Of a stretch of 64,000 nucleotides of DNA, positions 46,512-64,000 are shown one piece after another. Position 1 is the first letter of the stretch, and each line of letters begins with the position of its first letter. Below the pieces are notes generated by a model. That model was not told the origin of the DNA. It made no database searches and was given only the letters and a program-made list of their open reading frames with translations. The stretch spans positions 797 to 64,796 of the forward strand of contig JACQLT010000002.1 of the NCBI GenBank assembly GCA_016203945.1, in the 5' to 3' direction. Both the position numbers and the translations under genes were made by a program. This stretch comes from Parcubacteria group bacterium (GTDB taxonomy: Bacteria > Patescibacteriota > Minisyncoccia > Minisyncoccales > UBA10102).

Positions 46512-46528
46512 GAATGGCTTGTAGCTTC

Positions 46529-46930: not shown

Positions 46931-46935
46931 GGCGT

Positions 46936-47550: not shown

Positions 47551-47556
47551 ATCCTA

Positions 47557-49584
47557 TCACGGATTCTGCCCGAGAGAAGATATGCGAAGTTTCGCTTTCA
47601 GAAGCTGCTCGTACTCTTTCCGAAGTAGTTCGAATACCGCATCCTGATCATATTCCCGCTCCACCTTTTTTCTCCCCTCCTCCCCCATTACTTTGGCTTC
47701 TTCCGGATGAGAAAGAATATGCTCAATCGCCTCCGCCAGCTTTGCTGGATTACTGGAAGGAACCAGGAATCCCGTCTTTTTGTCATCCACCCCCTCCCTG
47801 CATCCTCGAATATCAGAAGCCACAACAGGTCTCTTCATCGCAGAGGCCTCTAAAATGGAGAGCCCCAGTCCTTCCCTGTACGAAGGCAGGACGAAGACAT
47901 CCATAACGGAATACAGCTCGATGACGTCTATGCGCTCTCCAAGAAACAGCACCTTGTCCCGGATGCCGTATGTATCAACAATGTTTTTATCCAGCGCATC
48001 TCTTTTTTCTGGCTCCTCCGGTCCTATGATAAGCAGTACTGTATTCGGAAATCGTTTTAGGATTTGGACAAACGCGGCAAAAAGAGGAATAAATCCCTTT
48101 TCTCTCACCAAGCGAGCCACAATTCCAACAACCTTCGTATTGAGAGGAACGCCTATTTCCCGCTTCTTTTGCGCGATGAACTCTTTTGAAAATCGACTCG
48201 GATCAAATTTTCGAAGGTTAATGCCTCCTCCGACATATATTACTTTTCCAGAGGGGTAAATCCCATGACCAGTTAAAAATGCGACATCTTCCTTGTTTAC
48301 CGAAAATGCCTTATGGACGATTTTTGCGATAATCCTCTCTATGGGAATAAAGATGAATTTCTTTTGCCAGGAAGAATCTTTCTGAAAATAGAGCCCGTGA
48401 ATGGTCGTGATGCGAACTGGAACTCTTGCGAAGAATGCCGCGAGCTGTCCCAAGAAACTTGCCTTGGGCGTATGAGTGTGCACAATATCAAATCGCTCTT
48501 TTTTGAAAAACCAATAAAGTCTAAATAATGCCGCAAGGTCTGCAATTGGGGTAAAGAGCCGCCTTGTAATCATAGTGGTCTGCACCTTTATTCCGGTATT
48601 TCTGATTTCTGGCACCCATTTCCCATCCGAAGATGCCGCATGCACCTCGTATTTCTCTTTCTGAAGGTAGCGCATAAAATCCAGGAGAAGAAACCGCAGA
48701 GAAATATCTGCGGACGCCACCTGGCATATTTTAAACATACGATCCTGTTCTTTGTGGGAACGAGCTCCCCTTAATTGATACCCCATCCCTTTTATCCCTC
48801 GCCTCAAAGAAGCAGGGACAAGATAGCTCACATATCCTCTTGCAATGCCAAGAGAGGCCCGCAAGCTCTTTGGGTAAAACCCCTCTCTAAGAGCTTTCTG
48901 TCTTGCCTTGAGCGCAAAGAGCGCCTGTTCTCTGTTTCTGGTCCGCGTGATGGAATCAGGGGCAAATCGGTAGGTGGTCAAATATGCAGAGAGATTCGCA
49001 GTGTCGTAGAATTTTGCAATGCGGAAATAAAGCTCGTAATCTTGAGTGTATTTCCAGCGCTCATCGTACCAGCCAACCTTGTCGAGGGCCTCTTTTCTCA
49101 TCATGATGGCCGAGTGTACGAATGGGTTAGTGAAAATAAGCGCTCTTTTGAGGGCGGCGCTATCTGTGGGAAGTTTCTTTTTGTTCGCTATGGTTCCCTC
49201 CTTGTCCATCTCATACGCCCAGGTGCCCAGAAGGGCGCAGGAAGGATTGGCTTCAAGAAACTCCACTTGAAGCTGAATCCTTTCCTTGTGTGCGATGGCT
49301 TTGTCGTCTACACGAGCAATATACTTTCCCTTCGCTTCCCTCAAGGCCTTGTTGAGAGATTTGGTAAGGCCAAGGTTTGTTTGATTGCTCAGGAGCCGGA
49401 TCCTTGCGTCTCGAACGGCGTATTCTTTGAGTATGTGAGAAGTTTCATCCGAAGAAGCATCATCTACGATAAGAAGTTCCAGATTTTTGTAGCTTTGAGA
49501 AAGAATGCTTTCTACGGACTCTTTGAGAAGCGAAGCGCGGTTGCGAGTAGCCATGACTACGGAAACAAGAGGTCTGTTTTTCAT
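47557..49584 (-). CDS. bifunctional glycosyltransferase, GT2 (N-terminal) + GT4 (C-terminal)
   Basis: VSVVMATRNRASLL..LELLIVDDASSDET (GT2). REGLGLSILEASAMKRPVVASDIRGCREGV (GT4 E-x7-E region). Confidence 0.85.
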   Translation of the reverse strand: MKNRPLVSVVMATRNRASLLKESVESILSQSYKNLELLIVDDASSDETSHILKEYAVRDARIRLLSNQTNLGLTKSLNKALREAKGKYIARVDDKAIAHKERIQLQVEFLEANPSCALLGTWAYEMDKEGTIANKKKLPTDSAALKRALIFTNPFVHSAIMMRKEALDKVGWYDERWKYTQDYELYFRIAKFYDTANLSAYLTTYRFAPDSITRTRNREQALFALKARQKALREGFYPKSLRASLGIARGYVSYLVPASLRRGIKGMGYQLRGARSHKEQDRMFKICQVASADISLRFLLLDFMRYLQKEKYEVHAASSDGKWVPEIRNTGIKVQTTMITRRLFTPIADLAALFRLYWFFKKERFDIVHTHTPKASFLGQLAAFFARVPVRITTIHGLYFQKDSSWQKKFIFIPIERIIAKIVHKAFSVNKEDVAFLTGHGIYPSGKVIYVGGGINLRKFDPSRFSKEFIAQKKREIGVPLNTKVVGIVARLVREKGFIPLFAAFVQILKRFPNTVLLIIGPEEPEKRDALDKNIVDTYGIRDKVLFLGERIDVIELYSVMDVFVLPSYREGLGLSILEASAMKRPVVASDIRGCREGVDDKKTGFLVPSSNPAKLAEAIEHILSHPEEAKVMGEEGRKKVEREYDQDAVFELLRKEYEQLLKAKLRISSLGQNP

Positions 49585-50327
49585 ATGCGCTTTCTGAGAA
49601 AAAACTTACGAAAAAAAAATTTAATGTCGTACCAGAGAAAAAAGGGGATCAAGGCAAGCCCTTTGATCTTTGCTTTTTGTTTTGCTTTCTTCAGATCTTC
49701 TCCGCCAAGCACCAGGGAAAGCGCTTTTGCAAGTTGCGCAGGGGCTGGTTGAAGTTCCAAAAATGCGATGAGTTTTCTCATGGTGCCTTGGGTATTCTCG
49801 AGCATTTCTTCATAGGAAATTTCAAGCGTCCGGAGATCAGGGTTTCTTTCAAAAAATTCTTTAATGCGCTCTTCGTACACACGAGTAATTCGTAAGGCTT
49901 CATCTCTCCGCATCCCTGACCTCTTCTGTAAGGACTCGGCAATCTGGTTGGGATTTCTCTTGCAATGAATAAAATAAGGATTTCTCAAGAAGGGAAAGTA
50001 GAGAGATATGGTGAGGCTCGTACGAGGATCTTTCCAGCCCCAAAGATCTCGCTCTGATCTTGCAATAAGATTTTTTATTCTTGGAGCAAAACGATCTCTA
50101 ATCGCTTCAAGCTCGGAAAGAGAAGGGGGGTGAGCCGCGTCTCCATTCGCTGCGAGCAGGAGGGTATCATTCAGCTCTACAAATTCCGCATTCTCAAAAT
50201 GGCCGAGGGGATTTGAGGATGTCGCTCCAATCAGCTTCTTTCCCAGATGCACCCCCAAGACATTCAAGATGCTTGCTGTCAAAGAGGTGCCGGATCGATG
50301 CATGCCAATCACGACTATGGTTTTCAT
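49581..50327 (-). CDS. PAPS-dependent sulfotransferase family protein
   Basis: VVIGMHRSGTSLTASIL matches the 5'-phosphosulfate-binding loop of sulfotransferases. 4-nt overlap with the GT gene. Confidence 0.7.
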   Translation of the reverse strand: MKTIVVIGMHRSGTSLTASILNVLGVHLGKKLIGATSSNPLGHFENAEFVELNDTLLLAANGDAAHPPSLSELEAIRDRFAPRIKNLIARSERDLWGWKDPRTSLTISLYFPFLRNPYFIHCKRNPNQIAESLQKRSGMRRDEALRITRVYEERIKEFFERNPDLRTLEISYEEMLENTQGTMRKLIAFLELQPAPAQLAKALSLVLGGEDLKKAKQKAKIKGLALIPFFLWYDIKFFFRKFFLRKRI

Positions 50328-50339
50328 GAATGAGAAGAA

Positions 50340-50873
50340 TCACCGAATATATCCATGTCCTTTCAGATAATCAAGAATCTTTTGCTTGTTTTCTTCGATG
50401 CTCGCAGTATCCGTATGAAGTTCTATGTTCGGGTTTTCTGGAAATTCGTATGGATCGGAAACTCCGGTAAAATTGGGGATCTCTCCTCTCTCTGCTTTTT
50501 TATACAACCCTTTTTTATCTCTCTGTTTACAAACCTCCAAAGAGCAACTGCAGAATACTTCAATAAAGTTTTGAACCTCCTTCCGCACCCCTTCCCTCTG
50601 CGCCCGATACGGAGAGATAAAAGAAGCTATCACTCCGACACCATTTCGACTCAGCAACGCGGCAAGAAATCCAACCCGTCTGATATGTTCGTCGCGATCC
50701 TCCTTTGTAAAACCGAGGTCTTTCCAGAGGTGCTTGCGCACAAGGTCTCCGTCCAAGCGTTCTGCAAGATACCCTCTTTGCTTGAGCTCTTCCTCTACTC
50801 GGTCTCCCAGAGTTGTTTTTCCAGAACCTGAGAGGCCGGTAAGCCAAAGTACAAATCCTTTTTGCATGTGCAT
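50340..50873 (-). CDS. cysC: adenylyl-sulfate (APS) kinase
   Basis: WLTGLSGSGKTTLG, LDGDLVRKHL, VIASFISPY. ATG 50873 lies just after the upstream stop. Confidence 0.9.
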   Translation of the reverse strand: MHMQKGFVLWLTGLSGSGKTTLGDRVEEELKQRGYLAERLDGDLVRKHLWKDLGFTKEDRDEHIRRVGFLAALLSRNGVGVIASFISPYRAQREGVRKEVQNFIEVFCSCSLEVCKQRDKKGLYKKAERGEIPNFTGVSDPYEFPENPNIELHTDTASIEENKQKILDYLKGHGYIR

Positions 50874-50877
50874 GTTC

Positions 50878-51714
50878 TTACTCTTCTCTCGTGGAAAGTT
50901 TTTCTGGATCTTCAATGCCCTGAAGTTTCATCAACTCTGCGTTCAGGGATTCTCCGGCTTCGTGTAATCTGAGCTCTAAACCTTTTTCTCTTGCAAAATG
51001 AATGAAAGCCCGCATATCTTTTGGAAAACATTTCCCTCCGTAGCCCCGATATCCGCTATGGCGCACATCAAGATGACTCTGCCCAATGCGAGGATCAGCT
51101 CCTGCACATTCTCTGACCGCTTCATAGTCAATGCCGAGCTGCTCGCAGAGGTCTGAAAGTTGGTTTGCAAAAATCACTTTGAGGGCCAAAAATGTATTGC
51201 CAAAATATTTCACCATTTCTGCTTCCTCTGCCTTGATTATTCTTGCAAGTGGCGCGCGAGGAAGCATCTCTAAAATCTGCTGGGCCGCTCCTTGGCTTTT
51301 CTCTGTATATCCAACAATCTGTCGCAACGGATGCAGCATATCTTCCAGCGCTCTACTCTCTTGGAGGAACTCGGGGTTGTAGAGAAACGTATGGTGAGGA
51401 TATGCCTCTTGCAGCCTGGCGGTGGTGCCAGGCAGCATAGTTGATTTGAGTACGACCACTTTTTGCCCTCCTATGTTGCGGCATGCCTCCTCTACAAAAG
51501 ATAGGTCTACTTTTCCTTCTTTGGTGGAAGGGGTGGGCACACAGACAAACATTACGTCTGCCTTGTTTAGTTCTTCAAGAGAACCCATTCGCTTTGGGGG
51601 ATCATACAGCAAAGGAGTCATGCCCTCCCCTTGAAAATAGTCGGCAAGCGCCCTTCCCACGGTTCCCACGCCAATAATTCCTATGCTCACACCGTTGTTT
51701 TTCTTATGGGGCAT
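50878..51714 (-). CDS. UDP-glucose/GDP-mannose dehydrogenase-family protein lacking the C-terminal domain
   Basis: IGIIGVGTVGRAL, NPEFLQESRALEDMLHP, catalytic-Cys context GYGGKCFPKD. Only 278 aa. Confidence 0.7.
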   Translation of the reverse strand: MPHKKNNGVSIGIIGVGTVGRALADYFQGEGMTPLLYDPPKRMGSLEELNKADVMFVCVPTPSTKEGKVDLSFVEEACRNIGGQKVVVLKSTMLPGTTARLQEAYPHHTFLYNPEFLQESRALEDMLHPLRQIVGYTEKSQGAAQQILEMLPRAPLARIIKAEEAEMVKYFGNTFLALKVIFANQLSDLCEQLGIDYEAVRECAGADPRIGQSHLDVRHSGYRGYGGKCFPKDMRAFIHFAREKGLELRLHEAGESLNAELMKLQGIEDPEKLSTREE

Positions 51715-52624
51715 AGTGCTTCAAAAACCATTTTTTTGTTCTCTCCACCCCCTCTGCAAAAGAAACTTTCGGCTCCCATGCGAGATACGCTTTTGCGAGT
51801 TTCAAATCCGCCCTCGTGTGTTCTACGTCTCCTGCTCTTTTGGGCAGATACATCTTGGGGCCTCCCAGCAAATTCACGAGCTCATTCACAGAATGAGAAT
51901 CGGCCGCGCCGACATTCACTATCTCCCCTCCCTTCAAGGTCTTCGCTGTCATTGCTTTGATGGTTGCCTCTACAACATCATCCACATAGCAAAAAGCCCT
52001 CGTCTGTGTCCCGTCTCCGAAAACGCTAAGAGGCTTTCCTTCCCTGCGCATCCTGAGAAATTTTCCAATCACCAAGCTGTAGTCAGAATCAAAATCAATG
52101 CGGGGGCCGTACACGTTGAAATACCGGAGAGAAATCACCGGCAGTCCATACAGAGAAGAAAACATCTTTGCCCACTGCTCTCCTACCCATTTCTGAAGGC
52201 CGTATGGACTCACGGGATGAGGCATCATGTTTTCTCTCAGAGGAAGGGTTTTCTGGTCTCCATACACGGAAGAGGAAGAGGCAAAAACAATCCGCTTGAC
52301 TTTCGCATCAAGCGCTGCTTTGAAAACACAGAGTGTGCCTGCAATATTTACCTCAGAAGTGCCGATGGGATCCGCGACAGAAAGCGGAACCCGAGGAAGA
52401 GCGGCTAGATGAAAGATACCTGATGGTTTTTCCTTTCGGAACACCCGGGATACAAAAGCGAGATTTCTGATATCGCCCCGCACAAAGACCGCTTGTTTGT
52501 TGACATTTTTTTTTCTGCCGGTAGAGAGATTATCCAGAACCACCACCCGGTGCTTCTTTTGAATAAGGCGGTCGGTCAAATGAGAGCCGATAAATCCTGC
52601 TCCGCCCGTCACAAGTACTTTCAT
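51704..52624 (-). CDS. NAD-dependent sugar epimerase/dehydratase (SDR)
   Basis: VLVTGGAGFIGSHL, SPYGLQK (YxxxK). Confidence 0.88.
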   Translation of the reverse strand: MKVLVTGGAGFIGSHLTDRLIQKKHRVVVLDNLSTGRKKNVNKQAVFVRGDIRNLAFVSRVFRKEKPSGIFHLAALPRVPLSVADPIGTSEVNIAGTLCVFKAALDAKVKRIVFASSSSVYGDQKTLPLRENMMPHPVSPYGLQKWVGEQWAKMFSSLYGLPVISLRYFNVYGPRIDFDSDYSLVIGKFLRMRREGKPLSVFGDGTQTRAFCYVDDVVEATIKAMTAKTLKGGEIVNVGAADSHSVNELVNLLGGPKMYLPKRAGDVEHTRADLKLAKAYLAWEPKVSFAEGVERTKKWFLKHYAP

Positions 52625-52632
52625 ACCCGTCT

Positions 52633-52661
52633 ATAATGGAGCAGGAACGTAAAAAAGTCAA
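52633..52661 (-). promoter_or_regulatory. internal promoter TTGACT-N17-CATTAT, 8 nt from ATG 52624
   Basis: rc of 52656-52661 = TTGACT and rc of 52633-52638 = CATTAT. Confidence 0.4.
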
Positions 52662-52673
52662 CCGCTCTTTCCT

Positions 52674-54104
52674 TTAAAATGAGGTGCCAGAAGGCCAATA
52701 GCGATCTTCTAGAAAGCCAAAGTTCGTACTAAAGTACAGGTCAAAGAGGAAGCGGAAGGTGTTCACCGCGCTCCAGGATTCTGGAGGGACTTCGCTTTTT
52801 CCAGGAAGCAGGAATGCTGAAAAGTTCCTCAGTTGGAGCTTTGCACGTTCCTCGTCATTCTCCACCCACTCTTTGGGCAGATGCACCCCGTGATCTGATT
52901 GAATAACGACTATGGGAGGCGTGGAACCCGCAGCCGCAAGAATGGTATCCACCGCTTCCTTGAACTTCTTGTCGGCAAACTTGAGCTGCCCCAAGTAGAG
53001 CTCCATGTCGCGGGGAGTATCCTTCTGCCCCGGATTGTTGCCAATGTACTCTCCGTTCTCTCCGAACACATAGGGTATGTGAGGAATGAGGATGTGGACA
53101 ATGACAAACTTGGGGCCAGGGAGTTTTGTTGCTTTCTCAATGTCGGAAAATGCGTTCAGCACTTTGGTCCGGGGATTCATAAGGGGCCCCAATGCGGTCA
53201 TGCTTTGTACGATGCGATGGAAATCGCTGCTGGTGAAGCGCACGTCGGCCTCTTCTCCTGTTATTACAGAGGAGCCAGAACCTACAAATACGAATTTGTA
53301 CCCTCGCTCTTTCAAAAAACTTGCCGCCTTGTTCTGTTCGGCGAGTTGCCTTGTGTAGGAAAGGTCGCTGGAAGAGAGATACTCCATGTTGAAGGTAGAG
53401 GGTAGGGAGAATCTCGTGGAAGGATAGTTGCTCAAACTATTCTCCACAATATGGAATCCTCTGCTCTCAAGCTCTTCACGGAAAGCGCTATCGTCATATC
53501 CGAAGAACTCAGAGAGTATCTCGGAGTTCGCGCGGCCGTCAGGAATGAGGTAGTAAATGTCGGGAAGAGCTGCCTCGGCGCTCAAAGGCGCGGACGGCAG
53601 AGTTTGCGAGGAAATATCTTGACGGTAAGTAAACTCATACGCAACCAGGTTCCCGATCGGAAGAAGCAAGAGCAGAATAAGCGCAAACGAAAGAGGTTTT
53701 GAAATAGGGCGCAAGGTAGCTCGCCATTTCAAGGAAACAAGAAGCAAAACTCCCCACAAGAACGCCCAGAGAACTATAAGGGTTCTATTTCGCGAAAACT
53801 CTCGCAAAAATGCGCCCTCCTTGGCAAACAAGCCAAAAAGAGATTCATAAAAAAATCCATAGTACCAAAAAGCGCATATAAACAAAGAGGCAAGAAGAGA
53901 GGCGCTACATATCTCTCTTTTCAATATATGCGCAAAAAAGAAAAATGCGATAAGCGCGCTTGCGCCGGCAGCAAGCAGAGGAAACCAAAGCTCTCCGTAC
54001 AAAAGTTCCTGGCGATTGTGGCTAAAAAGAAAGAGGACCGGAAAAAGGGCCAGAGCAAGTGGCGGAAAGAGCGCTGAGAGGATAGAACGGAACTTTATAT
54101 TCAT
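52674..54104 (-). CDS. polytopic membrane protein with C-terminal alkaline-phosphatase-superfamily (sulfatase/LtaS-like) domain
   Basis: Multi-TM N-terminal half. C-terminal PDIYYLIPDG..., FVIVHILIPHIPY, VVIQSDHG. Confidence 0.7.
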   Translation of the reverse strand: MNIKFRSILSALFPPLALALFPVLFLFSHNRQELLYGELWFPLLAAGASALIAFFFFAHILKREICSASLLASLFICAFWYYGFFYESLFGLFAKEGAFLREFSRNRTLIVLWAFLWGVLLLVSLKWRATLRPISKPLSFALILLLLLPIGNLVAYEFTYRQDISSQTLPSAPLSAEAALPDIYYLIPDGRANSEILSEFFGYDDSAFREELESRGFHIVENSLSNYPSTRFSLPSTFNMEYLSSSDLSYTRQLAEQNKAASFLKERGYKFVFVGSGSSVITGEEADVRFTSSDFHRIVQSMTALGPLMNPRTKVLNAFSDIEKATKLPGPKFVIVHILIPHIPYVFGENGEYIGNNPGQKDTPRDMELYLGQLKFADKKFKEAVDTILAAAGSTPPIVVIQSDHGVHLPKEWVENDEERAKLQLRNFSAFLLPGKSEVPPESWSAVNTFRFLFDLYFSTNFGFLEDRYWPSGTSF

Positions 54105-55480
54105 ATTTTTTTCATAAGATAGAGGATGCGGTGGGAATCAATAACCTGCTCTTGGCGAATGATGCGAAAGAATTGTGAAAATGCTTCTTCAAAATGCTCC
54201 TTGGTATAAGAAGGAAAGATATCATCCCTTGAGCGAAGCAGGAACTGCGCGTTTGAATCTTCCTTTGGCACAAACTCAATGACCAAGGCGGAACAAATGC
54301 GAGAGAGAAACTTTGCAATTTCCCCAAAGGGAACATTGTTGGAAATGGCAAGATGGTGCAAAAGGGCCAAGGCAAACACCATATCGGCAGGGCCGCGCTC
54401 TGCCAAAGACATCCGTTCTTCTCCTGCCCAGCCCAGAGACGAGCTTGGGTTGGTAAAATCCATAAGCAGAGGCAAAAGATTCGTCTCTTTGCGCATTTTC
54501 ACCTCATGCCAATTCTTCTCAACGGTTTCGTGGTCAATATCAAAGGCAACGGTGGAGACCCCGTTTCCAGACGCAATTCTGCTGAACACCCCGGTATTTG
54601 CCCCCAGATCCCAGACCGTCTTTGGAGAAATTTCCTCCACTACCGCTTTTATAAAGTCCTTCTTTGCCTGAAATGCCTGACTAGAATAGTTTGTTTCTCC
54701 GTAGTATTCCCCCCATTCGCTCCTTTTGCTGCTCAACTTCAAGCCCTCCACTGCGTCTTTCAAGCTTTCTAAAAACGCGGCGAGCTGAGCTTTGGAAAGC
54801 CGAGGAGTTTTTTTCTTCTCTGCTCCCTTTTCGTATCGTTTTTGAAAAGCGGCATGAATGCGAAGATGCGAAAGAAGAGAGGGTTTAAAATTGCTGGAAA
54901 ACGGCAAAAGGGAACTGGCCAGGTCCAAGGGAATGCCGTCAATAAAAACTCTCATGAGCTGACTTAATCTCACGTCTCTCTCGCTCATCAGGGCCAAGGG
55001 GGCCAAAAAATGACGGCAGAACTGGCCGTAGGCAACCCACGGTGTTCCCTCCTTATGGAAGTCAAAGGAAAGGGTGTCTATGAACATCGCCTTTCCCTTG
55101 AAAAACTGAATGTTGTAGCAGCTCGCGTCTTTGAGCGTCATGCCAAACCGCAATGCAATCTTCTGCACGGCCAGCGTGGCAAGGGCAGCTGCCTTGAGCT
55201 GGCTGAAACACCATTCGTAAGGATACGAGATGAACGGAATAACCCGCGGCTTGAGAATCTTATACGCTCCTTGCATGCGTTGCAGCGCTTCTCTCAATTC
55301 TTCATGGGGCAAGAGAAGGTTTTTTCCGACCAGAGCCTCGTACAAACCAGAGCTCATAAGATGATCGTACTGCGCTTTATAGGCAGGAGCTACCATGCGA
55401 TAGGGCTCTCCCTTTTCATAAAAAAGAAAGCCGCTGGGATCTCGAAAGCTTCCTTTATCTCTCGAGTTGATCGTTGTCAT
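54101..55480 (-). CDS. two-domain class I SAM-dependent methyltransferase
   Basis: C-terminal VWDLGANTGVFSRIAS (motif I) and LALLHHL. The N-terminal ~270 aa belong to an unassigned domain (GSFRDPSGFLF). ATG 55480 is preferred. Confidence 0.7.
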   Translation of the reverse strand: MTTINSRDKGSFRDPSGFLFYEKGEPYRMVAPAYKAQYDHLMSSGLYEALVGKNLLLPHEELREALQRMQGAYKILKPRVIPFISYPYEWCFSQLKAAALATLAVQKIALRFGMTLKDASCYNIQFFKGKAMFIDTLSFDFHKEGTPWVAYGQFCRHFLAPLALMSERDVRLSQLMRVFIDGIPLDLASSLLPFSSNFKPSLLSHLRIHAAFQKRYEKGAEKKKTPRLSKAQLAAFLESLKDAVEGLKLSSKRSEWGEYYGETNYSSQAFQAKKDFIKAVVEEISPKTVWDLGANTGVFSRIASGNGVSTVAFDIDHETVEKNWHEVKMRKETNLLPLLMDFTNPSSSLGWAGEERMSLAERGPADMVFALALLHHLAISNNVPFGEIAKFLSRICSALVIEFVPKEDSNAQFLLRSRDDIFPSYTKEHFEEAFSQFFRIIRQEQVIDSHRILYLMKKI

Positions 55481-55706
55481 CGCGCTTTCTCCTAAACATT
55501 CCGAAAATCTTTCTCCAATAGATTTTGAGCATATAGAGAGCGCCCGCAAACGTCGCTATGACAACCTGCACCACCATGCTCCCCGTCCCAGGATCAAGAT
55601 ATGCCTCGGCCCAGGCAGGCAAAAGGATGAGGGTGAGGAGGAACGAAAGGAAAGAAAATATACGCATAGAATACATCATAGTATCACTCTTTTGAAATAG
55701 GGGCAA
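55455..55706 (-). CDS. small membrane protein with YLDPGTGS motif
   Basis: Two hydrophobic helices and a basic tail. Start uncertain (several Met in the first 14 codons). Confidence 0.45.
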   Translation of the reverse strand: MPLFQKSDTMMYSMRIFSFLSFLLTLILLPAWAEAYLDPGTGSMVVQVVIATFAGALYMLKIYWRKIFGMFRRKRDDNDQLER

Positions 55707-55709
55707 CTG

Positions 55710-57097
55710 TTATTGGGTGGACAATTGATCTTCAAGAAAAGGATAGCACTGATCTTCAAGAAATCCAAAGTTGGTGTCAAAGTAGAGGTCAAAGAGAAAA
55801 CGGAAGGTGTTCACCGCGCTCATGTCAGAGGGAAGAGCAGCATCTTTTCCGGGAAGATAGTATGCCCCAAAGTTTCGTAATTTTCTCCGTGCGCAACCTT
55901 CCCGGATCTTGAACCCTTCCACATACGTTGTTCCATGATCTGACTGGATAATCACCACCGGGGGTGCTGAACCTGAGGCCGCAAATATTTTTTCTACCGC
56001 CTCCATGAGCTTTTTATTCGTAAACTTGAGTTGCTCAAGATATGACGAATCAATAGCTTCTCCGTTCTCGCCAAAAATAAATGGCGCGTGAGGAACTAAA
56101 ATATGCGCCATCACGAACTTTGGACCCTCAATCTTTGCCGCCTTTTCTATGTCGGAAAACGCACCCAGTATTCTGCCCCGGTGATCAATAACATGGCCAA
56201 GTACGGTTATGCTCTGCACGATGCGGTAGAAATCATTATTCGTGAAGTTAATGTCTGCCTCCTCTCCTGTCATCATACTGGAACCCGACCCTATAAATAT
56301 GAACTTGTACCCTTGTTCTTTGAGAAACCTTATAACCTTGTTATTTTCGGCAAGCTCTCTCGTATTTTCAAAATCGCTGGAAGAAAGATACTCCATGTTG
56401 AGAGTAGAAGACAAGGAAAGGTGTGTAGCGGTGTAGTTGCTCCTACTGTTTGTAACCACTTGAAAGCCGCGAGAACGCAGATACCCAAGAAATTCCGCGT
56501 TGTCATATTCAAGAAATCGCTTGAGAGCTTCGGAATTTGCATAAGCATCGGGAACGATGTAGTAAATGTCGGGCAGCGCCCCCCCTCAGAGGACGAGGAG
56601 AGAAGCGTATGTTCCGGAGATATCCGGCGGTGAGTAAGTTCATACGCCGCTAAGTTTCCAATCTGCAGAAGTAAAAGAACTCCAAGGGTGAAAGATAGGG
56701 GTTTTAGAATTTTATGCCAATGGGTTTTTAATCTGACAGCGACAAGAAATATAGCTCCCCATACAAAACCCCAGACCAATAGAGATGTTCTTTGACGCGG
56801 AAAATCCCGCCAGAAAACTCCTTCGACGTCAAATAACCCGGAAAGTCTTACGTAAAAAAATCCATAGTACCAAAAAGCGCACATGAGGAGAGAGGCAACA
56901 AGAGATGCGAAAAACACATCTCTGGTAAAAATCCTCGCCAGGAAAAATACGGCAAGGGCGCCAGCTGCACTCAAAAAGAGGGGAAGCCAGAGCTCTTGGC
57001 GCAAAAGCTCCTGGCGATTGTGGCTGAAAAGAAAAAGAACTGGGAATACGGATATGGCAAGACAGGGGAAGAAAGCTATAAGCGTCTGTTTCTTCAT
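55710..57097 (-). pseudogene. frameshifted paralogue of the 52674-54104 membrane transferase
   Basis: ORFs 56330..57097 and 55710..56459 align to the N- and C-terminal halves of the 476-aa protein. The frames meet at a G7 run (C7 on plus, 56579-56585). Confidence 0.8.
56579..56585 (-). repeat. homopolymeric G7 tract at the frameshift point
   Basis: TCT GAG GGG GGG CGC as sequenced. G8 (or G5) would read ...SEGGALPDIYYIVPD, matching ...AEAALPDIYYLIPD of the paralogue. Confidence 0.85.
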
Positions 57098-58419
57098 GTT
57101 TTTCCTATGGTATCGCGAACCCTCAGCGCGAGTAAAGAAAGAAGCGCAAGGAACGCGGGGATGCGAATACGCATATACACTCCAAAATTGCTTACGATGA
57201 ACAACGAAAGAAGCCCGAGGAGGCCGATCCCGAAGAGCACCACCGGAAGCATCATTCTCCAGCGCTTATGAGAAACAACAACGCCCTTGGCAATGAAGAA
57301 AAAGAGGGCATACCACCACATCGTTTCTCCAAGAGTCAGCCAATGACGAGGATACTGGAACTGCCACGGGAAGGGCCCGAAGGAAACAACAAGAAACGAG
57401 CGTATGGAGTTGAAAAGAAAGCTCAAGGGATTTTCGGTCCCGGCTTGTACCACCACCGTAGAACCGCGACCCCTGGGCAGCTCCTGGGGCTGGGAAGGGG
57501 GCCGTTCAGGCTCTGAAGAGCCTTCAGGCTCGATGAGTTGAGGCTGTTGAGGTTGAGATATACTTGGCGCATAGGCTACCTCCCGATACAAGCGAATGAC
57601 GCTGGGCCTGAGGAAGTGAGCAGCGGTGGAAAGTCCGTAGTACCCATGCCCGGACAATTGGGGCAAAAATCCCAGCAAGGGCACAATGACAAGGGCGCAT
57701 ACTGCCTTGCGCTTCCTTGGCATGCGCAGAAGAAAGGCAAATGAAATGAGAAAGACCAAGAGCGCGACAAATCCGATATAAAAGCGAAAGTGAATAAGGA
57801 GGGCCAACACGCCGTACAGCGCAAAAAATGTCTTCCAAGAGAAACGTCCAAGAAATCGCAGGGTGAGCCAGAGGGAAAAAAGCGCAAGAAACGCAACAAG
57901 GCTCTCCCGCAAGAGCAAGCTTCCAAAATACAGCAGGCTGGGATAGAGCGCCGCAGCAACCCCTGCCCCCATTGCGAGAGTAGGAGAAGCTCCCAACTCC
58001 TTTGCGATGAGATATACAAGGATCACCGCGAGAACGGCAAACCATACGCTAAGCATAATACCAATAAGTTCTTCTCCTATCGTGAGCGCATAGGCAGCTC
58101 CCAGTACTGCGGGATACCAATGAGGAGCGCCTGTCTGCTTCACATGCCCTTGTATGGCAGAGAAAGAAAAGTTCCCTTCCCGAAAATCCTGTGCGATCGC
58201 AACGGCTGTATCGTGATAAATAGGGCTGTCTCCTCTTCCTCCTCCGAAGGGATAGAACTGGGTATAGAAAATCACAAAGGCTGCTGCAGCATGCAGGGTT
58301 AAAGCAAAGAAAAAGAGAAGGAGAACCTGTTTGGACGCAATCTTTGTTCTTTTGAGTACGAGCAGGGTGCCTGCCGTCAGAAGCGCAAGAAAAGCGATGC
58401 TCACCAAAAATGTCGCCAT
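57094..58419 (-). CDS. polytopic membrane protein, GT-C-like glycosyltransferase or glycan polymerase candidate
   Basis: At least 10 TM helices, GGRGDSPIYHDTA in the first loop, and a P/Q/E-rich loop (SQPQQPQLIEPEGSSEPERPPSQPQ). Family not firmly recognised. Confidence 0.55.
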   Translation of the reverse strand: MATFLVSIAFLALLTAGTLLVLKRTKIASKQVLLLFFFALTLHAAAAFVIFYTQFYPFGGGRGDSPIYHDTAVAIAQDFREGNFSFSAIQGHVKQTGAPHWYPAVLGAAYALTIGEELIGIMLSVWFAVLAVILVYLIAKELGASPTLAMGAGVAAALYPSLLYFGSLLLRESLVAFLALFSLWLTLRFLGRFSWKTFFALYGVLALLIHFRFYIGFVALLVFLISFAFLLRMPRKRKAVCALVIVPLLGFLPQLSGHGYYGLSTAAHFLRPSVIRLYREVAYAPSISQPQQPQLIEPEGSSEPERPPSQPQELPRGRGSTVVVQAGTENPLSFLFNSIRSFLVVSFGPFPWQFQYPRHWLTLGETMWWYALFFFIAKGVVVSHKRWRMMLPVVLFGIGLLGLLSLFIVSNFGVYMRIRIPAFLALLSLLALRVRDTIGKT

Positions 58420-58429
58420 AAAGATGCTG

Positions 58430-59428
58430 TTATTTGCTGATCACTTCTTGAATAACCGCCTGCCACTCACGCTGCAACTTCCCTAAAGAAAACTGGCGGA
58501 CAAACTTGTATCCTCTTTCCCCCTGCGCTTTCTTTGCTTCGGGATGAGAAAGAAGATATTCAACCTTTTGCTTCAATGCTCCGAAATCGTCGCATATCGT
58601 CTGGCCCGAGCTCTCAAGGAGCTCCTGCATTGCGGCAATAGACGTGCCGATCACCGGCGTCTTAAATAACATCGCCTCGCAAGCCGTCATATCCCAGCCC
58701 GTGCGAAAGCGGGTCATGAATACCGCAACATCCGTTGCCTTGAGAAGGCAGAGAAAATTTCTTCTTGTGAGATTCAAATTGCGGGCCGGGATCTTTACTA
58801 ATTCTTCCCCTGAAGTAACGAGGTAGACATCCAAATCTTTCAAGGCCTCGTACGCCTCCACCACTCCTTTCTCCCGCTCGCAGTTGCCCAGGTACACAAT
58901 GGGCTTCCCTTCCAGCTGGAACTCTTTTTTGAATCTCTCCACTTCTTCATCAGATACGCGGTATTCTTCTACGGGAAAGCAGTTGTAAATCTTATATACC
59001 CTGGCAAAACCCCGCTCCCGAAAATGCCGTTCCCAATACCGAGAAATGACCACGACCGCATCTGCTCCGCGGAGATTAGAGTAGATATATCCTTCCAGCA
59101 AACGGTACATTGTGCGCGCCCACCACGGCCATACCGAAGGATCAATATGATGGATGAGAAAAATATTTTTCTTTCTCGTCCACAAGGGAACAATGCCTGC
59201 CATGATAAAGTCGCGAATCCACACATCTCTTGGTTTCTTGAACCAAAGAGAAATCAATCCCAGAGCCCATAAGACGGGCTTGAGAGCCTTTACATCAATG
59301 CTGTGAAAGGAGACGTCTTGCAATTCCACCTCAAAAAAGGGGGAGAGTTTCTCTCTGACCCACGCTCCGTATTGAAATCCTCCTGAACGCTTGCGAGAAA
59401 GCGTTATCCAGGCAAGGCGCGGCTTCAT
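58430..59428 (-). CDS. glycosyltransferase (GT-B fold, GT4-like)
   Basis: C-terminal TACEAMLFKTPVIGTSIAAMQELL. Weak N-terminal similarity. Confidence 0.6.
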   Translation of the reverse strand: MKPRLAWITLSRKRSGGFQYGAWVREKLSPFFEVELQDVSFHSIDVKALKPVLWALGLISLWFKKPRDVWIRDFIMAGIVPLWTRKKNIFLIHHIDPSVWPWWARTMYRLLEGYIYSNLRGADAVVVISRYWERHFRERGFARVYKIYNCFPVEEYRVSDEEVERFKKEFQLEGKPIVYLGNCEREKGVVEAYEALKDLDVYLVTSGEELVKIPARNLNLTRRNFLCLLKATDVAVFMTRFRTGWDMTACEAMLFKTPVIGTSIAAMQELLESSGQTICDDFGALKQKVEYLLSHPEAKKAQGERGYKFVRQFSLGKLQREWQAVIQEVISK

Positions 59429-60384
59429 TGGAGTAAATAATCAACTACTTTTTTTATCCCCTCTTCTAAGGAAACTTTTGCCTGATAGTGCTCTTTCATT
59501 CTTGTAATGTCCGCAAAACGGGATTTCACTCCTTCGGGTTTGTCTTCAAGATTCTTGATTGCAGGACTATATCCCGCGTATCTTGCAGCAAGTTCTGCCA
59601 CGTCTCTGAATGTGTTGGAAACACCCCTTCCCAAGTTCATCGTCTCGTATCCCCGCAATTTCGGAAGGTAGGAAATAATGGCTTCCACGATATCGTCAAC
59701 ATAGATAAAATCGCGCGTCTGTTTTCCGCTTCCCCATATAACCAGAGGGTCTTCTTTGTTCGCCGCGCGAGCACAAATGGCAGGCACAGGATAGCTTGGG
59801 TCCTGATCTTCCCCGTATCCCGAGAAGGGACGAGGGCAGAATACGTTCAAATCGTAGTGCTTCGCAAAGGTAGAGGCGAGAAATTCACCGCTCAATTTAC
59901 TCCAGCCGTATACGAGATCTGGCATTCCGAATCTGGAGCAAAGAGCTTGAAGATCGACAAGGTCCTCTTTCAAGGCAATACCCTTTTCTTCGCCGTCTTG
60001 AAGATCAATGGGATATATGGCGGGAGAACTCATATAGACAATTTGCTTTGGCTTGTGCTGGGTAGCCCATCTGAAAAACAAAGCGTCTAATTCCAAAGAG
60101 TGGGCGTTCAGCGCCGGTTTCCCTTCCATTACCGCCCTTCCTCCCACTACTGCCGCAAGATGTATGACAAGATCATACTGCTGCTTCTCATTTTTTAGAT
60201 AATCTCTTATGTCTGCCTGCACAAAATGAACGGGGGCTTTCAGGTGCAAAGGCCACTGGTCGGGATGCAGCCCTGTGCTCAGGTCGTCCACCAAGACAAT
60301 ATCGCAGCTGCGTTCTGCAAGATATCGCGCAAAGTGCCTGCCCAAAAATCCGCATCCGCCCGTAATAAGCACTCGCTGTTTCAT
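59425..60384 (-). CDS. NAD-dependent sugar epimerase/dehydratase (SDR)
   Basis: VLITGGCGFLGRHFARYL, YGWSKLSGE (YxxxK). ATG 60384 is preferred. Confidence 0.85.
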   Translation of the reverse strand: MKQRVLITGGCGFLGRHFARYLAERSCDIVLVDDLSTGLHPDQWPLHLKAPVHFVQADIRDYLKNEKQQYDLVIHLAAVVGGRAVMEGKPALNAHSLELDALFFRWATQHKPKQIVYMSSPAIYPIDLQDGEEKGIALKEDLVDLQALCSRFGMPDLVYGWSKLSGEFLASTFAKHYDLNVFCPRPFSGYGEDQDPSYPVPAICARAANKEDPLVIWGSGKQTRDFIYVDDIVEAIISYLPKLRGYETMNLGRGVSNTFRDVAELAARYAGYSPAIKNLEDKPEGVKSRFADITRMKEHYQAKVSLEEGIKKVVDYLLQ

Positions 60385-60398
60385 AGAGATGTATTTTA

Positions 60399-61535
60399 CT
60401 ATAGGAAGTCCCACTGAGCAAGAACTTTTTTAATATCAAAATCAAAAGCCCTTTGCCGCGCTTTTCTTGAAAGCTCTGCCAATTGGACCGAATCCGTCAA
60501 AAGGTCAGCAATGGCTTTTGCAAGCAGCTCTTCATCTGTCGCTTGAACCAGCAAACCATATTCTCCCGCCTCAATTCCTGTTGCCTGTTTTGTTATCGGA
60601 GTGGAGGGGGCCAAGATCTCACGTGGTCCCGATTTGCAGTCAAACGAGACGATAGGAAGTCCACACGCCAAGGCCTCAAGAAGGACGTCGGGCAGGCCCT
60701 CCCAAAGAGACGAGAGCGCAAACACCTTTGCCCGTGCAAGAAATCGAAATGGATTCTCTTGCCATCCGAGAAAGTGAACCGAATCCTGTATACCCAACTC
60801 GTGCGAAAGCTCCTGCAAAGAATCCTTCAGAGAACCTTCTCCCAGAAGCACCAACTGAGCTTGCGGAATCTTTTTTTTCACTTGTGTAAAAGCTCTCAGA
60901 AGTTTTCCGTGTGCTTTCTGCTTTTCCAAGCGGCCCATGGCAATAATCACGGGGGAGGCAAAGAGCGATTCGTATTCCGGGCCAAGGGGCTCTTGCGCTA
61001 AGGCCTGGAGTTTTGCCACGTTCACCGGATTGTAAATCACTCTGATCTTTTCTGCAGGAATGCGGAAGTTCTTCTCAAGATCCAGCGCAATGGCTTTAGA
61101 AACCGCTACAAGGAGGTGCGCCTTTTTGAAAAAGAAACGCACAAAGAGTTTGAATGGAAGTTGTCTCCATCCTTTCCTGCTTCCTGAAATGTGCATGTCC
61201 ACGCGAACTACCGAACGAGGGTGCGCGAGAATGCTTATGGCATTTGCCGAAGCTCCCGCCGACACCACGCAATCCGGCTTCTCTTGAGCAAGCACCTTGA
61301 GGAATCTCAGCCAGCGCACAAAAAACCGAAAGAAGCGCGAGAAGAGGTTTTTGGAGATCGGAGAATCCAAGCTGATAAGCTTCCCTCGATAGGGATAGGA
61401 TATCTTTTTCTCAAACACCACAATGACAGGTTCCATAGACTCCGGGAGCGCGAGCGAAACCTCGGAAATAACGCGTTCGGCTCCCCCCCGAAAGAGCGTG
61501 GGGATCAAAAAAAGGATTTTTTTCTTTTGCGGCAT
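60399..61535 (-). CDS. glycosyltransferase family 4
   Basis: LIPTLFRGGAERV, WEGLPDVLLEALACGLPIVSFD. Confidence 0.88.
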   Translation of the reverse strand: MPQKKKILFLIPTLFRGGAERVISEVSLALPESMEPVIVVFEKKISYPYRGKLISLDSPISKNLFSRFFRFFVRWLRFLKVLAQEKPDCVVSAGASANAISILAHPRSVVRVDMHISGSRKGWRQLPFKLFVRFFFKKAHLLVAVSKAIALDLEKNFRIPAEKIRVIYNPVNVAKLQALAQEPLGPEYESLFASPVIIAMGRLEKQKAHGKLLRAFTQVKKKIPQAQLVLLGEGSLKDSLQELSHELGIQDSVHFLGWQENPFRFLARAKVFALSSLWEGLPDVLLEALACGLPIVSFDCKSGPREILAPSTPITKQATGIEAGEYGLLVQATDEELLAKAIADLLTDSVQLAELSRKARQRAFDFDIKKVLAQWDFL

Positions 61536-62794
61536 AGGTCTTTCAACGTAGAGAAGGTGCGTTCCGAACTCTTCCCGTCTTGATAGGTATACGTAAGCTC
61601 TCGCACCTTTTTTCGAAAAAGAGCATACTCGTCTTTTCCCTCCCGGATATCCTTGAGCGCGTCAAGAAGCTCTGGAAGGGTTTTTGCTTTGGGACCCGGA
61701 GTAATTTCCTCGTAGGGAAAATACAACTCTCGATCTTTCGTCACATACTTTTCATAGTCAAATGGAAAGAATATGATGGGGCGATCAAGTAAAAGAAATT
61801 CAAAATAAATGCCAGAGTAATCAGTCACCAATATATCTATGGAAGAAAGCAGGGGGTCCGCGTCAGATTCCGGATTCACGAATATGATATTTTTGTATTC
61901 TCTACCCCCCCTGGCATTGACCGTGGCCTGTGCCTGCGCCAAAGGATGAAGTTTTAAAAAGAAAAAAAGATTCTCTTGTGCAAGAAATTCGTCCAAGCGA
62001 AGTAGGACATCTGGCTTTTCAAAGAATGAATCCCCTCCCGTATCCCGCCACGTGGGAGCGTACAAAATCGTCCTTGGCAAAGATGATTCTTTTTTGAGTT
62101 GTTGCAGCTTAACAAGAACTTCTGGATCTGCCCCCACATCAGCTCCCGGAATATCCTTAAAATAAATATCGTTCTTTGGAAATCCCGTCACAAACACCCT
62201 TTCCTTGGTAATGCCAAAAGCGCTTGTAAAAATTTTTTGGAAGACCGGCGAGGTTGCCACCATGTAATCTGGCTTGCGGAATCTCCAGGGAAGAAGAACA
62301 TGGTAGAGAACACTGGACAGGCCGCGGGAACGCCAGAGTTTCATTTCTGCAGAATTGCCCTTAGTTACGTCCTGCTCAATTTTTTTTAATGGAATGCCGT
62401 GCCACAAGAGTATTTCTTTAGCTCCTCCAGAAAGCCAAAAAGAAACGGTTTCAATTGAGGCGTCCACTATGAAGTATCCCGCTCGAAGACAACTCCAAAC
62501 GCCGCGAAAAGACCAAAAAAAGACAGTGGGGTATCCTTTTGCTTGAAGCTCCCGCATAAGTGTTCTGTCTCTCGAAATCCAGAGAGGCTGTACTTCTTTC
62601 AAGTTTTTATTTCCAAGACAGAGAAAAAGATACTTACTGCTCCACGTGAACTTTCTTGGAATGCCAAAAACCCATAAGGTGCTTTTTCGCGGAAAGAAAT
62701 GAGAGAGGCCATACACCAAAAACAAAAAGGGGTGTGTCAACAAATGCGCTCCGTATCTTTTGATTTTCGTGAAGTAAACCGTATTCATGCGCAA
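61505..62794 (-). CDS. CDP-alditol (glycerol/ribitol) phosphotransferase, TagB/TagF family
   Basis: ILYAPTWRDTGG, FFLKLHPL, ILVTDYSGIYFEFLLLDRPIIFFPFDYEKY. Confidence 0.8.
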   Translation of the reverse strand: MRMNTVYFTKIKRYGAHLLTHPFLFLVYGLSHFFPRKSTLWVFGIPRKFTWSSKYLFLCLGNKNLKEVQPLWISRDRTLMRELQAKGYPTVFFWSFRGVWSCLRAGYFIVDASIETVSFWLSGGAKEILLWHGIPLKKIEQDVTKGNSAEMKLWRSRGLSSVLYHVLLPWRFRKPDYMVATSPVFQKIFTSAFGITKERVFVTGFPKNDIYFKDIPGADVGADPEVLVKLQQLKKESSLPRTILYAPTWRDTGGDSFFEKPDVLLRLDEFLAQENLFFFLKLHPLAQAQATVNARGGREYKNIIFVNPESDADPLLSSIDILVTDYSGIYFEFLLLDRPIIFFPFDYEKYVTKDRELYFPYEEITPGPKAKTLPELLDALKDIREGKDEYALFRKKVRELTYTYQDGKSSERTFSTLKDLCRKRKKSFF

Positions 62795-62803
62795 TATCCT
62801 GCA

Positions 62804-63523
62804 TTATAGGGCTTTCCTCCTGAGAATTTCAGCTCCTTTTTGCAGATCGTCAAAATCGTCTACCTCCATACAAAGCTCGTTCTTCTGGAAGTACACGGGG
62901 GACAGAGGGAATTGCGGAGACATCTCGTTGAATGCATGCTCTGCGTATTCCTTGGTCCTCCCCTCTTTCACAAACTGGCCAATCGCCTCCATCCACGATA
63001 CAAAGTCTTCCTGTCGCAGTTTATAAAGAGGAGCCAAAAAACGGAGGCCATCTCCTGTAAGCCTCACATCAATCTCTGTAATGAGCCCGTCTTTGATCCT
63101 CGCGTTGAAGTCCTTTGCAGAAACCTCGGTCTTGTGCACAAGAACCCCAGAGACCTTCTGGTCTAACAACCTTCCAAGCAGATGGGGCTCAAAAAGCACA
63201 TCGCTGTGGAACAGAAGAATATCGTCTCCCGCCATAGCATCCCTGGCAAGCCACATTGAGTAAATATAGTTTGTATTTTCATAGTCAGGGTTCCTCACAT
63301 ACGCCGGGGATAGAGAAGGGTAGTTGGCGGCCATAAACTTCTTCAACATATCTTCCAGGTGTCCTGTAGTGAATACAATATCTGTAATGTGATATTCCAA
63401 GAGCGTATCCACGATGCGACTCAAAAGCTCCTTTCCGCATACCCGAACAAGGGTCTTGGGGTTCTCATCGGTAAAGGGACGGAGACGACTTCCAACGCCA
63501 GAAGCAAGGATCACTGCTTTCAT
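62804..63523 (-). CDS. sugar/alcohol-phosphate nucleotidyltransferase (LicC/GlmU-N-like)
   Basis: MKAVILASGVGSRLRPFTDENPKTLV (G-x-G-x-R-x-x-P signature). Confidence 0.8.
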   Translation of the reverse strand: MKAVILASGVGSRLRPFTDENPKTLVRVCGKELLSRIVDTLLEYHITDIVFTTGHLEDMLKKFMAANYPSLSPAYVRNPDYENTNYIYSMWLARDAMAGDDILLFHSDVLFEPHLLGRLLDQKVSGVLVHKTEVSAKDFNARIKDGLITEIDVRLTGDGLRFLAPLYKLRQEDFVSWMEAIGQFVKEGRTKEYAEHAFNEMSPQFPLSPVYFQKNELCMEVDDFDDLQKGAEILRRKAL

Positions 63524-64000
63524 GTGATTTCCTTCAGAATGAGGCGGAGGGCTTCTATGGTAAGGATGCGGGGATTGTTTTTTACACGCTCGGGGTTGAA
63601 CCCGTTCTCCACAATGAGATTTACGTCTTCTTCTGCACGAACGCCGAGCCGAGAGAGTCGGCGTTCTAAATGAATCTCGTCCATAAGCTGCTCAAGTTTC
63701 TCCTTCGCTTCCCTGCCATCCCTTGCGCCAAACAAGTTCACTAATTCAGCCATGGCTTTCTTAACATATACCACTCCCCTGCTGTCGTTGAGGCTTTGTT
63801 CATCAGCCTCGCTGTTGAAAAGAATCATGCTCGGCAATGTAAGAGCGACTGCGTGCCCGTGCGGAACTCCAAAATACGAAGTAAGGGGATACGAAATCGC
63901 ATGGCACGCCGTGGTAAAAGAGATGTTGATTGCTTTGCCGGCCAAGTGCGCGCCTTTGCTCATTGCACCTCGTGCTTCAGGGGTCGGGGTATTCACCGCA
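63520..64000 (-). CDS. iron-containing (group III) alcohol dehydrogenase family protein, 3' part only
   Basis: FTTACHAISYPLTSYFGVPHGHAVALTLP is the metal-binding His region of Fe-ADHs. The ORF continues beyond the window end. Confidence 0.7.
   Translation of the reverse strand, partial: AVNTPTPEARGAMSKGAHLAGKAINISFTTACHAISYPLTSYFGVPHGHAVALTLPSMILFNSEADEQSLNDSRGVVYVKKAMAELVNLFGARDGREAKEKLEQLMDEIHLERRLSRLGVRAEEDVNLIVENGFNPERVKNNPRILTIEALRLILKEIT

Follow-up and report, generated by a model that had tools for sequence, protein, structure and literature searches.

A second EptA-like membrane transferase gene, split at a seven-guanine tract, in a mosaic envelope-glycan locus of a groundwater Parcubacteria bacterium

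What has happened to a bacterial gene whose two halves are well conserved but lie in different reading frames that meet at a single homopolymer? The question is raised by a gene on the minus strand, at positions 55710-57097, of a 64,000-nucleotide stretch of DNA (hereafter, the window) from a metagenome-assembled genome (MAG), held at NCBI, of an uncultivated groundwater Parcubacteria bacterium of the candidate phyla radiation (CPR); the locus tags of the region are HY458_01095-01105. The gene encodes a putative membrane transferase related in structure to EptA and MCR-1, lies in an envelope-glycan cluster beside an intact paralogue, and is interrupted by a run of seven guanines (G7). The original prediction, made from the sequence alone, saw in this run a candidate phase-variation switch or else a pseudogene or a sequencing error. 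We find that the tract is genuine. With confidence that is about evenly divided, we propose that a dispensable paralogue has recently lost its function through slippage; the loss may be adaptive and may be spreading by recombination.

The disrupted gene and its parts are as follows.

55710..57097, minus strand: disrupted EptA/MCR-1-like membrane transferase gene of the alkaline-phosphatase superfamily, 462 amino acids if the tract were G8
56586..57097, minus strand: N-terminal part in the ATG frame, codons 1-171, with five predicted transmembrane (TM) helices and the start of a linker
56579..56585, minus strand: G7 homopolymer (plus-strand C7), the frameshift site, encoding Gly172-Gly173
55710..56578, minus strand: catalytic domain in the shifted frame (LPDIYY...IQSDHG...), with D177, D184, T225, H337, and D387-H388

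Two overlapping minus-strand open reading frames (ORFs) cover the gene, one of 255 amino acids (56330..57097) and the other of 249 amino acids (55710..56459). The ATG frame that opens at 57097 encodes five hydrophobic helices followed by ...LLSSSSEGG, and then runs through 84 out-of-frame codons to a stop at 56330. Around the tract, the minus strand reads ...TCC TCT GAG GGG GGG CGC TGC CCG..., in which the seven Gs occupy 56579-56585. The downstream frame is closed by a TGA directly 5' of the tract (CTC TGA GGG GGG GCG); past the tract, it reads (G)ALPDIYYIVPD...IQSDHG... and ends at a stop at 55710. Because homology to the paralogue jumps from one frame to the other between ...SSEGG and ALPDIYY, and because the TGA lies immediately 5' of the tract, the junction is pinned to the tract itself, at exactly the GAG GGG GGG CGC sequence where the original prediction had placed it. 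The frame is regained, as had been predicted, either by adding one G, which gives a 462-amino-acid ORF (...SSSSEGGALPDIYYIVPD...), or by removing two, which gives a 461-amino-acid ORF (...SSSSEGALPDIYY...). The restored (G8-type) product reads ...SSEGGALPDIYY... across the junction, and its junction peptide is SSSSEGGALPDIYYIVPDAYANSEALK. In-frame tract lengths for this gene are G8, G5, and G11, and G7 is OFF.

Neither half of the gene contains a further stop or indel, in agreement with the earlier view that both are otherwise stop-free and conserved. The claim that the two ORFs jointly match the 476-amino-acid paralogue at 52674..54104 along its full length was also borne out, and all the motifs quoted in its support were found: BLASTP aligned residues 3-453 of the restored protein with the paralogue at 265 identities in 466 positions (57%; E = 0). 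We considered whether the two halves might function as separate proteins and rejected this idea, given that the TGA closes the downstream frame ahead of the tract and that the first start codon in this frame comes no earlier than codon 214; a separate C-terminal product would therefore be without both the metal-binding PDIYYIVPD strand and a membrane anchor. The MAG annotation contains a C-terminal "hypothetical protein" of 234 amino acids alone (HY458_01100; window positions 55710-56414), and judging from the consecutive locus tags, the N-terminal 255-amino-acid ORF is unlisted, so the disruption is invisible in the public record.

Is the G7 tract real? If the true sequence were G8, the frameshift would be a sequencing or assembly error at a homopolymer. 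Homopolymers are classic sites of indel errors, and the data apparently all come from short-read metagenomes, so a shared systematic bias is conceivable. Nevertheless, the exact 255-amino-acid G7 product is present on five Logan contigs from five runs (SRR12113383, SRR12113384, SRR12113420, SRR12113422, and SRR12113430), each of which is 100% identical to the window, tract and all, over 1.5-7.4 kb. A second, divergent strain is represented by a MAG that was assembled differently (GCA_964471845.1, contig CAYYHJ010000051.1); across 3.5 kb, it shares 96.2% identity with the window, and its gene is split in the same way at a G7. The tally is seven assemblies (the source MAG, the five Logan assemblies, and the second MAG) that comprise two haplotypes; these are consensus assemblies, and they represent approximately two independent populations. 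Six other G/C runs of 7-8 in the window, one of them a G8, serve as controls, and all are in frame within intact genes (pgk, ftsZ, an NAD(P)HX dehydratase gene, a GT4 glycosyltransferase gene, a TagF-like gene, and a VirD4/TrwB-like gene). Moreover, no other split gene was found in the 64-kb window. The occurrence of G7 in separate assemblies, the in-frame control runs, and the lack of any other split gene therefore make a sequencing error very unlikely, the least probable of the explanations considered here, and this alternative of the original prediction can be laid aside.

Several other candidates for split genes or homopolymer errors in the window were examined and discarded. The overlapping pairs tsf/rpsB, ppa/gap, and ftsE/ftsX, as well as a sigma-like gene and murB, each proved to be distinct and intact. 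Likewise, homopolymer errors had been suspected at 24431 (pgk/DHH) and 61483 (TagF-like/GT4), but both sites proved to be overlaps between intact, separate genes.

A comparison of tract lengths in relatives and metagenomes had been suggested as a way to detect heterogeneity, and it yielded G7 in every copy known. Exact look-ups in approximately 15 billion public proteins found none of the products that the window allele would encode with G4, G5, G6, G8, G9, G10, or G11, nor any of those that the second allele would encode with G5, G6, G8, or G9; the protein collection has on record the G7 product and C-terminal fragments only. Because a search with the full-length restored protein missed existing clusters of 248- and 228-amino-acid fragments, which match parts of this protein at >95% identity, its negative outcome was distrusted, and a search with the catalytic domain and the exact look-ups were added. 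Above 60% identity, the catalytic-domain search returned C-terminal fragments only and no intact orthologue. Among GTDB species representatives, there was no close relative (best match, 35% identity), and JGI metagenome contigs gave no match to a protein-pattern scan or to a flank-anchored DNA pattern that allowed any tract length.

A third relative (L031; Logan SRR13727527), whose flanks share 88-90% nucleotide identity with the window, has the gene order GT4, PMT_2-like gene, small ORF, and methyltransferase, with no trace of the disrupted gene at the same position. The gene is therefore one of the variable parts of this locus, and it is probably being lost. All copies known have G7, and the lineage can dispense with the gene. 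No tract of this kind is present in the paralogue or in P0002, an orthologue of the paralogue, where runs reach G5 at most. In P0002, the protein reads GGGG at the corresponding point of the linker, which raised the idea of a conserved poly-G; this was rejected, as the underlying DNA has a G5 run only.

Are poly-G runs unusual in this genome segment? Dinucleotide shuffles predict 8.68 occurrences of the heptamer GGGGGGG in the 64 kb, and 8 were observed. Of the Gly codons, 22% are GGG, and GGG-GGG pairs number 4, against 4.5 expected. Poly-G is thus neither enriched nor avoided in the window, with most runs in housekeeping genes, and an excess of long tracts that favors surface genes, one mark of a contingency strategy, was not found within the 64 kb. 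Because G7 and G8 runs lie in frame in pgk, ftsZ, and other genes, they are ordinary sequence here and the likeliest site for a spontaneous indel. The non-random point is that the window's only split gene found breaks exactly at G7.

The control runs deserve a brief description in their own right. G7 runs lie in frame inside essential genes, one in the STGGGA motif of pgk (24431-24437) and another in ftsZ (9114-9120); the genome evidently tolerates them. Further in-frame runs lie at 61483-61489 and 61905-61911. The longest G/C run of the window, a coding-strand G8 at 25473-25480, is in frame near the 3' end of the VirD4/TrwB-like gene (25421-27091), which encodes a type IV coupling protein with a treble-clef zinc-finger domain.

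What would the restored gene encode? Sequence models give a partial answer. The restored protein scores 24.5 bits against the Pfam Sulfatase family (PF00884; cut-off, 25; E = 2e-5), and the paralogue scores 30.4 bits, above the cut-off. No NCBIfam model matched either protein at an E value of 0.01 or below, and the restored protein has no match to the Pfam EptA_B_N domain; by sequence, it falls outside the EptA/MCR-1 type. An AlphaFold2 model, which was computed with 78 homologues in the input (predicted local distance difference test [pLDDT] score, 90.5; predicted template modeling [pTM] score, 0.90), contains five long helices (residues 3-26, 37-58, 61-90, 101-122, and 124-155). A low-confidence linker at approximately residues 156-177, which holds the tract-encoded Gly-Gly, lies between the fifth TM helix and an alpha/beta catalytic domain. 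The best Foldseek matches for this model were full-length EptA (5fgn, the top match), MCR-1 (9nww), EptC, ICR-Mc, and PbgA, followed by sulfatases, all with a probability of 1.0, and identity to the solved enzymes is 12-16%.

Conservation among the 78 homologues points to the same kind of enzyme. D177, H337, and D387 are invariant, D184 is present in 77 of the 78, and the nucleophile column at the start of helix 225-234 (T225) is Thr in 70 sequences and Ser in 8. The protein has all the elements of an alkaline-phosphatase core, namely, the alpha/beta fold, a metal-binding Asp after beta-1, a nucleophile at a helix N terminus, and a distal D-H pair. It also has the architecture of the EptA/MCR-1 type, in which a five-helix N-terminal membrane domain precedes an outward-facing catalytic domain with a Thr nucleophile. 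A formylglycine-dependent sulfatase was considered and rejected, as the C/S-x-P-x-R motif is missing and Cys never occupies the nucleophile position in the 78 homologues; the nucleophile motif is instead N-Y-x-x-T-x-x-S-L, without P-x-R. The fold, the Thr or Ser nucleophile, and the missing C/S-x-P-x-R motif argue for a predicted EptA/LtaS-style membrane-anchored phospho-group transferase of an uncharacterised subfamily, rather than a formylglycine sulfatase. The original prediction had described a paralogous membrane transferase that belongs to a glycan cluster, and this description is supported.

How, then, should the split be explained? The absence of the gene from the third relative, the lack of an intact orthologue, and the lack of poly-G enrichment favor the recent loss of a dispensable gene. 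Several observations weigh against this explanation, foremost among them the state of the catalytic domain. No stop or indel separates the window from the second strain across the 1.39-kb gene, and the 28 substitutions downstream of the tract fall at 16 third, 9 first, and 3 second codon positions. Read in the restored frame, this region has an omega of 0.19 (Nei-Gojobori method [NG86]; 16.5 synonymous and 11.5 non-synonymous substitutions), which signifies purifying selection; wrong-frame values for the same region are 0.59 and 3.2, and the neighbors have values of 0.19 (methyltransferase), 0.30 (PMT_2-like gene), and 0.13 (paralogue). The synonymous excess has a binomial P of 6e-5 to 0.014, by the synonymous fraction that is assumed. 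Gene conversion from the resident paralogue was rejected as a source of the low omega, the divergent patch being only 67-70% identical. The catalytic domain was therefore under selection during essentially all the divergence between the two alleles. Purifying selection and the lack of further lesions mean that inactivation was recent, reversible, or bypassed; a plain, long-standing pseudogene is therefore excluded, and either the inactivation or the recombinational spread of the G7 block must be recent. For a plain pseudogene, the original prediction had anticipated G7 throughout, as is seen in all the assemblies with no other length, and additional disabling mutations in relatives, of which the relative has none. 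Furthermore, pseudogenes are otherwise rare in this streamlined genome segment, and only about two independent populations that carry the gene have been sampled. With respect to timing, a block at 57110-56445, which spans the start codon, the tract, and 135 nucleotides beyond it, has 1 mismatch in 666 nucleotides between the two strains, against 3-10% divergence on its two sides (4-5% upstream, and a patch of 10% downstream). The alleles thus share a very recent ancestor in the G7 segment, whether through common descent or through homologous recombination, and the two strains are not independent witnesses of G7.

The same evidence bears on two explanations in which the gene is still used. Under phase variation, slipped-strand toggling between G7 (OFF) and G8 (ON), at a rate that is of consequence, would vary one decoration of the glycopolymer, and OFF cells would dominate the samples. 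The anatomy is suitable: the ORF of a surface-modification gene contains a frame-switching repeat, the repeat encodes part of a disordered linker that should tolerate one Gly more or less, and apart from the tract the gene is whole and under selection. Intermittent use predicts such purifying selection on the downstream frame even though both strains are G7. In addition, this is an accessory gene in a mosaic, recombining locus, as contingency loci often are, and there are close functional analogues in the poly-T tracts of neisserial eptA/lptA and the poly-G tracts of the Campylobacter jejuni capsule locus. However, the polymorphism in tract length that a slipped-strand switch should display was not found in the 7 assemblies and 2 haplotypes, nor was an ON product found in the approximately 15 billion proteins, and G7/G8 is at or below the tract length usual for efficient switching. 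No genome-wide contingency strategy is evident, since poly-G shows no enrichment and housekeeping genes contain the other G7/G8 runs in frame; the common G7 sits on the recently shared block, so the strains are not independent observations; and the paralogue and P0002 are without such a tract. We consider phase variation possible but doubtful: the ON/OFF control envisaged in the original prediction is neither shown nor refuted, with the otherwise intact gene speaking for it and zero recorded variation in tract length speaking against it. Recoding, by contrast, would leave the DNA at G7 and supply the G8 product through a -1 ribosomal slip or the insertion of one extra G by RNA polymerase, to give a low-level or regulated amount of full enzyme. 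GA[G GGG GGG]C is formally a zero-frame X_XXY_YYZ heptamer with perfect re-pairing, whose -1 product is the restored protein; purifying selection on the downstream frame with both strains at G7 is compatible with such use, and there is precedent for low-level compensatory frameshifting on a 7-G run (PMC5009743). Yet G_GG.G_GG.N is among the poorest -1 shifters in E. coli, with 0.018% for G_GG.G_GG.U without a stimulator (PMC4066793), and no convincing 3' stimulatory fold was found here (minimum free energy z = -1.43; 20 of 200 shuffles fold as well). The heptamer is therefore present without an efficient motif and stimulator, the paralogues have no tract, there are no orthologues for a comparison of conservation, and for bacteria, the runs on which productive transcriptional slippage has been documented are A/T runs of about 9 or more, not G7. 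We regard recoding as highly improbable.

For the young loss of function that we prefer, we propose the following course of events. The gene for a second EptA-like envelope transferase, a dispensable one, would originally have had a G8 (GAG GGG GGG GCG, or E-G-G-A) where it encodes the flexible linker, and replication slippage would have removed one G. The protein encoded by the G7 allele would stop past the five membrane helices, with the outward-facing catalytic domain removed. One phospho-type substituent of the glycopolymer, otherwise added by the disrupted paralogue, would then be missing, and the intact paralogue and the remaining cluster would still work. OFF is the consensus in every sampled population, and its position on the near-identical 666-nucleotide block, in two strains that otherwise diverge by 3-8%, points to a single recent origin, shared by descent or homologous recombination. 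Slippage back to G8 would be mechanistically possible at ordinary homopolymer mutation rates.

The genes around the disrupted gene, and the cluster that contains them, are listed below.

52674..54104, minus strand: intact paralogue, 476 amino acids, 57% identical to the restored protein
54101..55480, minus strand: S-adenosylmethionine (SAM)-dependent methyltransferase-like protein, 459 amino acids, between the two paralogues
55455..55679, minus strand: small conserved membrane or secreted protein of about 73 amino acids, directly downstream of the disrupted gene
57094..58419, minus strand: gene upstream of the disrupted one, for a polytopic membrane protein that weakly matches PMT_2 (GT-C-like); its stop codon and the start codon of the disrupted gene overlap in ATGA
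43552..63996, minus strand: single-strand cell-envelope glycopolymer cluster

The intact paralogue has a 99%-identical copy in the second strain (P0001/L027). The small protein at 55455-55679 consists of a signal-like or TM segment followed by AYLDPGTGSMVVQV...YWRKIF and has no family match; it adjoins the methyltransferase in all three haplotypes, including L031, which is without the frameshifted gene. The PMT_2-like gene has a hypervariable segment at approximately 57500-57530, with 39 differences plus gaps in a single 100-nucleotide bin against L029. At this segment, the L031 protein (L031:1477-2865) has a Pro/Gln-rich insertion and is 462 amino acids long, compared with 441. The fact that two Logan contigs break off at 57529 suggests that strains with differences at this point co-exist. 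Across 54481-57968, the divergence between the two strains (measured against L029) ranges from 0 to 10% per 100 nucleotides, with several near-identical blocks of about 600 nucleotides, a pattern that, as far as sequence comparison goes, indicates frequent homologous recombination in the envelope-glycan locus.

The cluster encodes a CapD-like dehydratase, a DegT aminotransferase, a hexapeptide acyltransferase, a UDP-glucose dehydrogenase-like protein, and epimerases. It also encodes a Bac_transf initiating transferase, a TagF/TarF-like glycerophosphotransferase, a nucleotidyltransferase, a GT2-GT4 fusion, and several GT4s. At 49581-50872, genes for a sulfotransferase (Sulfotransfer_3/1) and an adenosine 5'-phosphosulfate (APS) kinase suggest that the envelope polymer is sulfated; in those genes of the cluster that were examined, we noticed no ATP sulfurylase. 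The whole is possibly a teichoic-acid-like, sulfated glycan cluster. Within it, the UDP-glucose/GDP-mannose dehydrogenase-like ORF at 50878-51714 encodes 278 amino acids, with a partial N domain and a central domain and no C-terminal domain, and the same 278-amino-acid product is called in a Logan assembly. Pairing of this ORF with the ORF at 50340..50915 as another frameshifted gene was rejected, as the latter is the APS kinase. The rest of the window contains the housekeeping genes rpsB, tsf, ppa, gap, ftsZ, ftsEX, pgk, and murB.

What does the locus mean for the biology of these bacteria? As it stands, a disrupted gene is hidden by MAG annotation, a Parcubacteria envelope-glycan locus is a mosaic whose gene content differs from strain to strain, and EptA-like proteins of an uncharacterised subfamily occur paired in such loci. 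These observations are of use for annotation and for population-genomic follow-up, and they will not surprise a specialist. A bolder reading, which we offer tentatively and think rather unlikely, is that this is the first contingency locus in CPR bacteria (Patescibacteria), a poly-G switch of a second EptA-like transferase whose OFF allele has possibly spread by recombination; a literature search found no paper that links phase variation and homopolymeric tracts with CPR bacteria. If this were true, one phospho-substituent of a teichoic-acid-like, possibly sulfated polymer would be varied, plausibly for phage evasion or for host attachment by an ultrasmall episymbiont. If the tract varies, uncultivated ultrasmall CPR bacteria would join the host-adapted pathogens from which stochastic surface switching is mainly known, and a specific envelope decoration would be under fluctuating selection from phages or host contact.

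Comparison with known systems places the locus more precisely. In Neisseria eptA/lptA, slipped-strand mispairing at a poly-T tract in the ORF truncates the lipid A phosphoethanolamine transferase (PMC6111236). The neisserial enzyme resembles the restored protein in its five N-terminal TM helices and its extracytoplasmic alkaline-phosphatase-fold domain with a Thr nucleophile (PMC6111236; PDB 5fgn), although identity to EptA (5fgn) is only about 14% and the TM-score is about 0.42. The neisserial tract is near the 5' end of the gene and switches at a measured rate of about 1e-4, whereas the tract described here is at codon 172 and no switching has been observed. Also, the neisserial acceptor is lipid A, whereas here it would presumably be the wall glycopolymer of a CPR bacterium without lipid A.

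Poly-G tracts in C. jejuni are typically longer, at G8-G11. In its capsule locus, they occur in 6 of 28 genes, including those for the paralogous O-methyl phosphoramidate (MeOPN) transferases cj1421 and cj1422, and the MeOPN decoration is a phage receptor (PMC3417653). As at the locus described here, paralogous phospho-type transferases are encoded in one surface-polysaccharide cluster, with poly-G in the ORF. The difference is that C. jejuni has many tracts with documented length heterogeneity, whereas here there is one G7, with no enrichment and no heterogeneity, and the enzyme family is unrelated.

A further parallel, on the side of recoding, is the thymidine kinase of herpes simplex virus, in which the frame is broken at a 7-G run and function is nevertheless partly kept by a "savior indel" with leaky, rare ribosomal frameshifting (PMC5009743). 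That case involves a eukaryotic ribosome and a drug-selected viral gene, and there is no evidence of a read-through product here. The remaining comparison is with ordinary slippage pseudogenes, which the gene resembles in its single-base indel at the gene's longest homopolymer, its fixed allele, its absence in a relative, and the presence of an intact paralogue that may cover its function. It differs from them in having no secondary lesions and clear purifying selection in the dead frame. The case thus shares the anatomy of a contingency locus without the length polymorphism that defines one, and it is an ordinary kind of event; if the gene is a pseudogene, it is a very young one.

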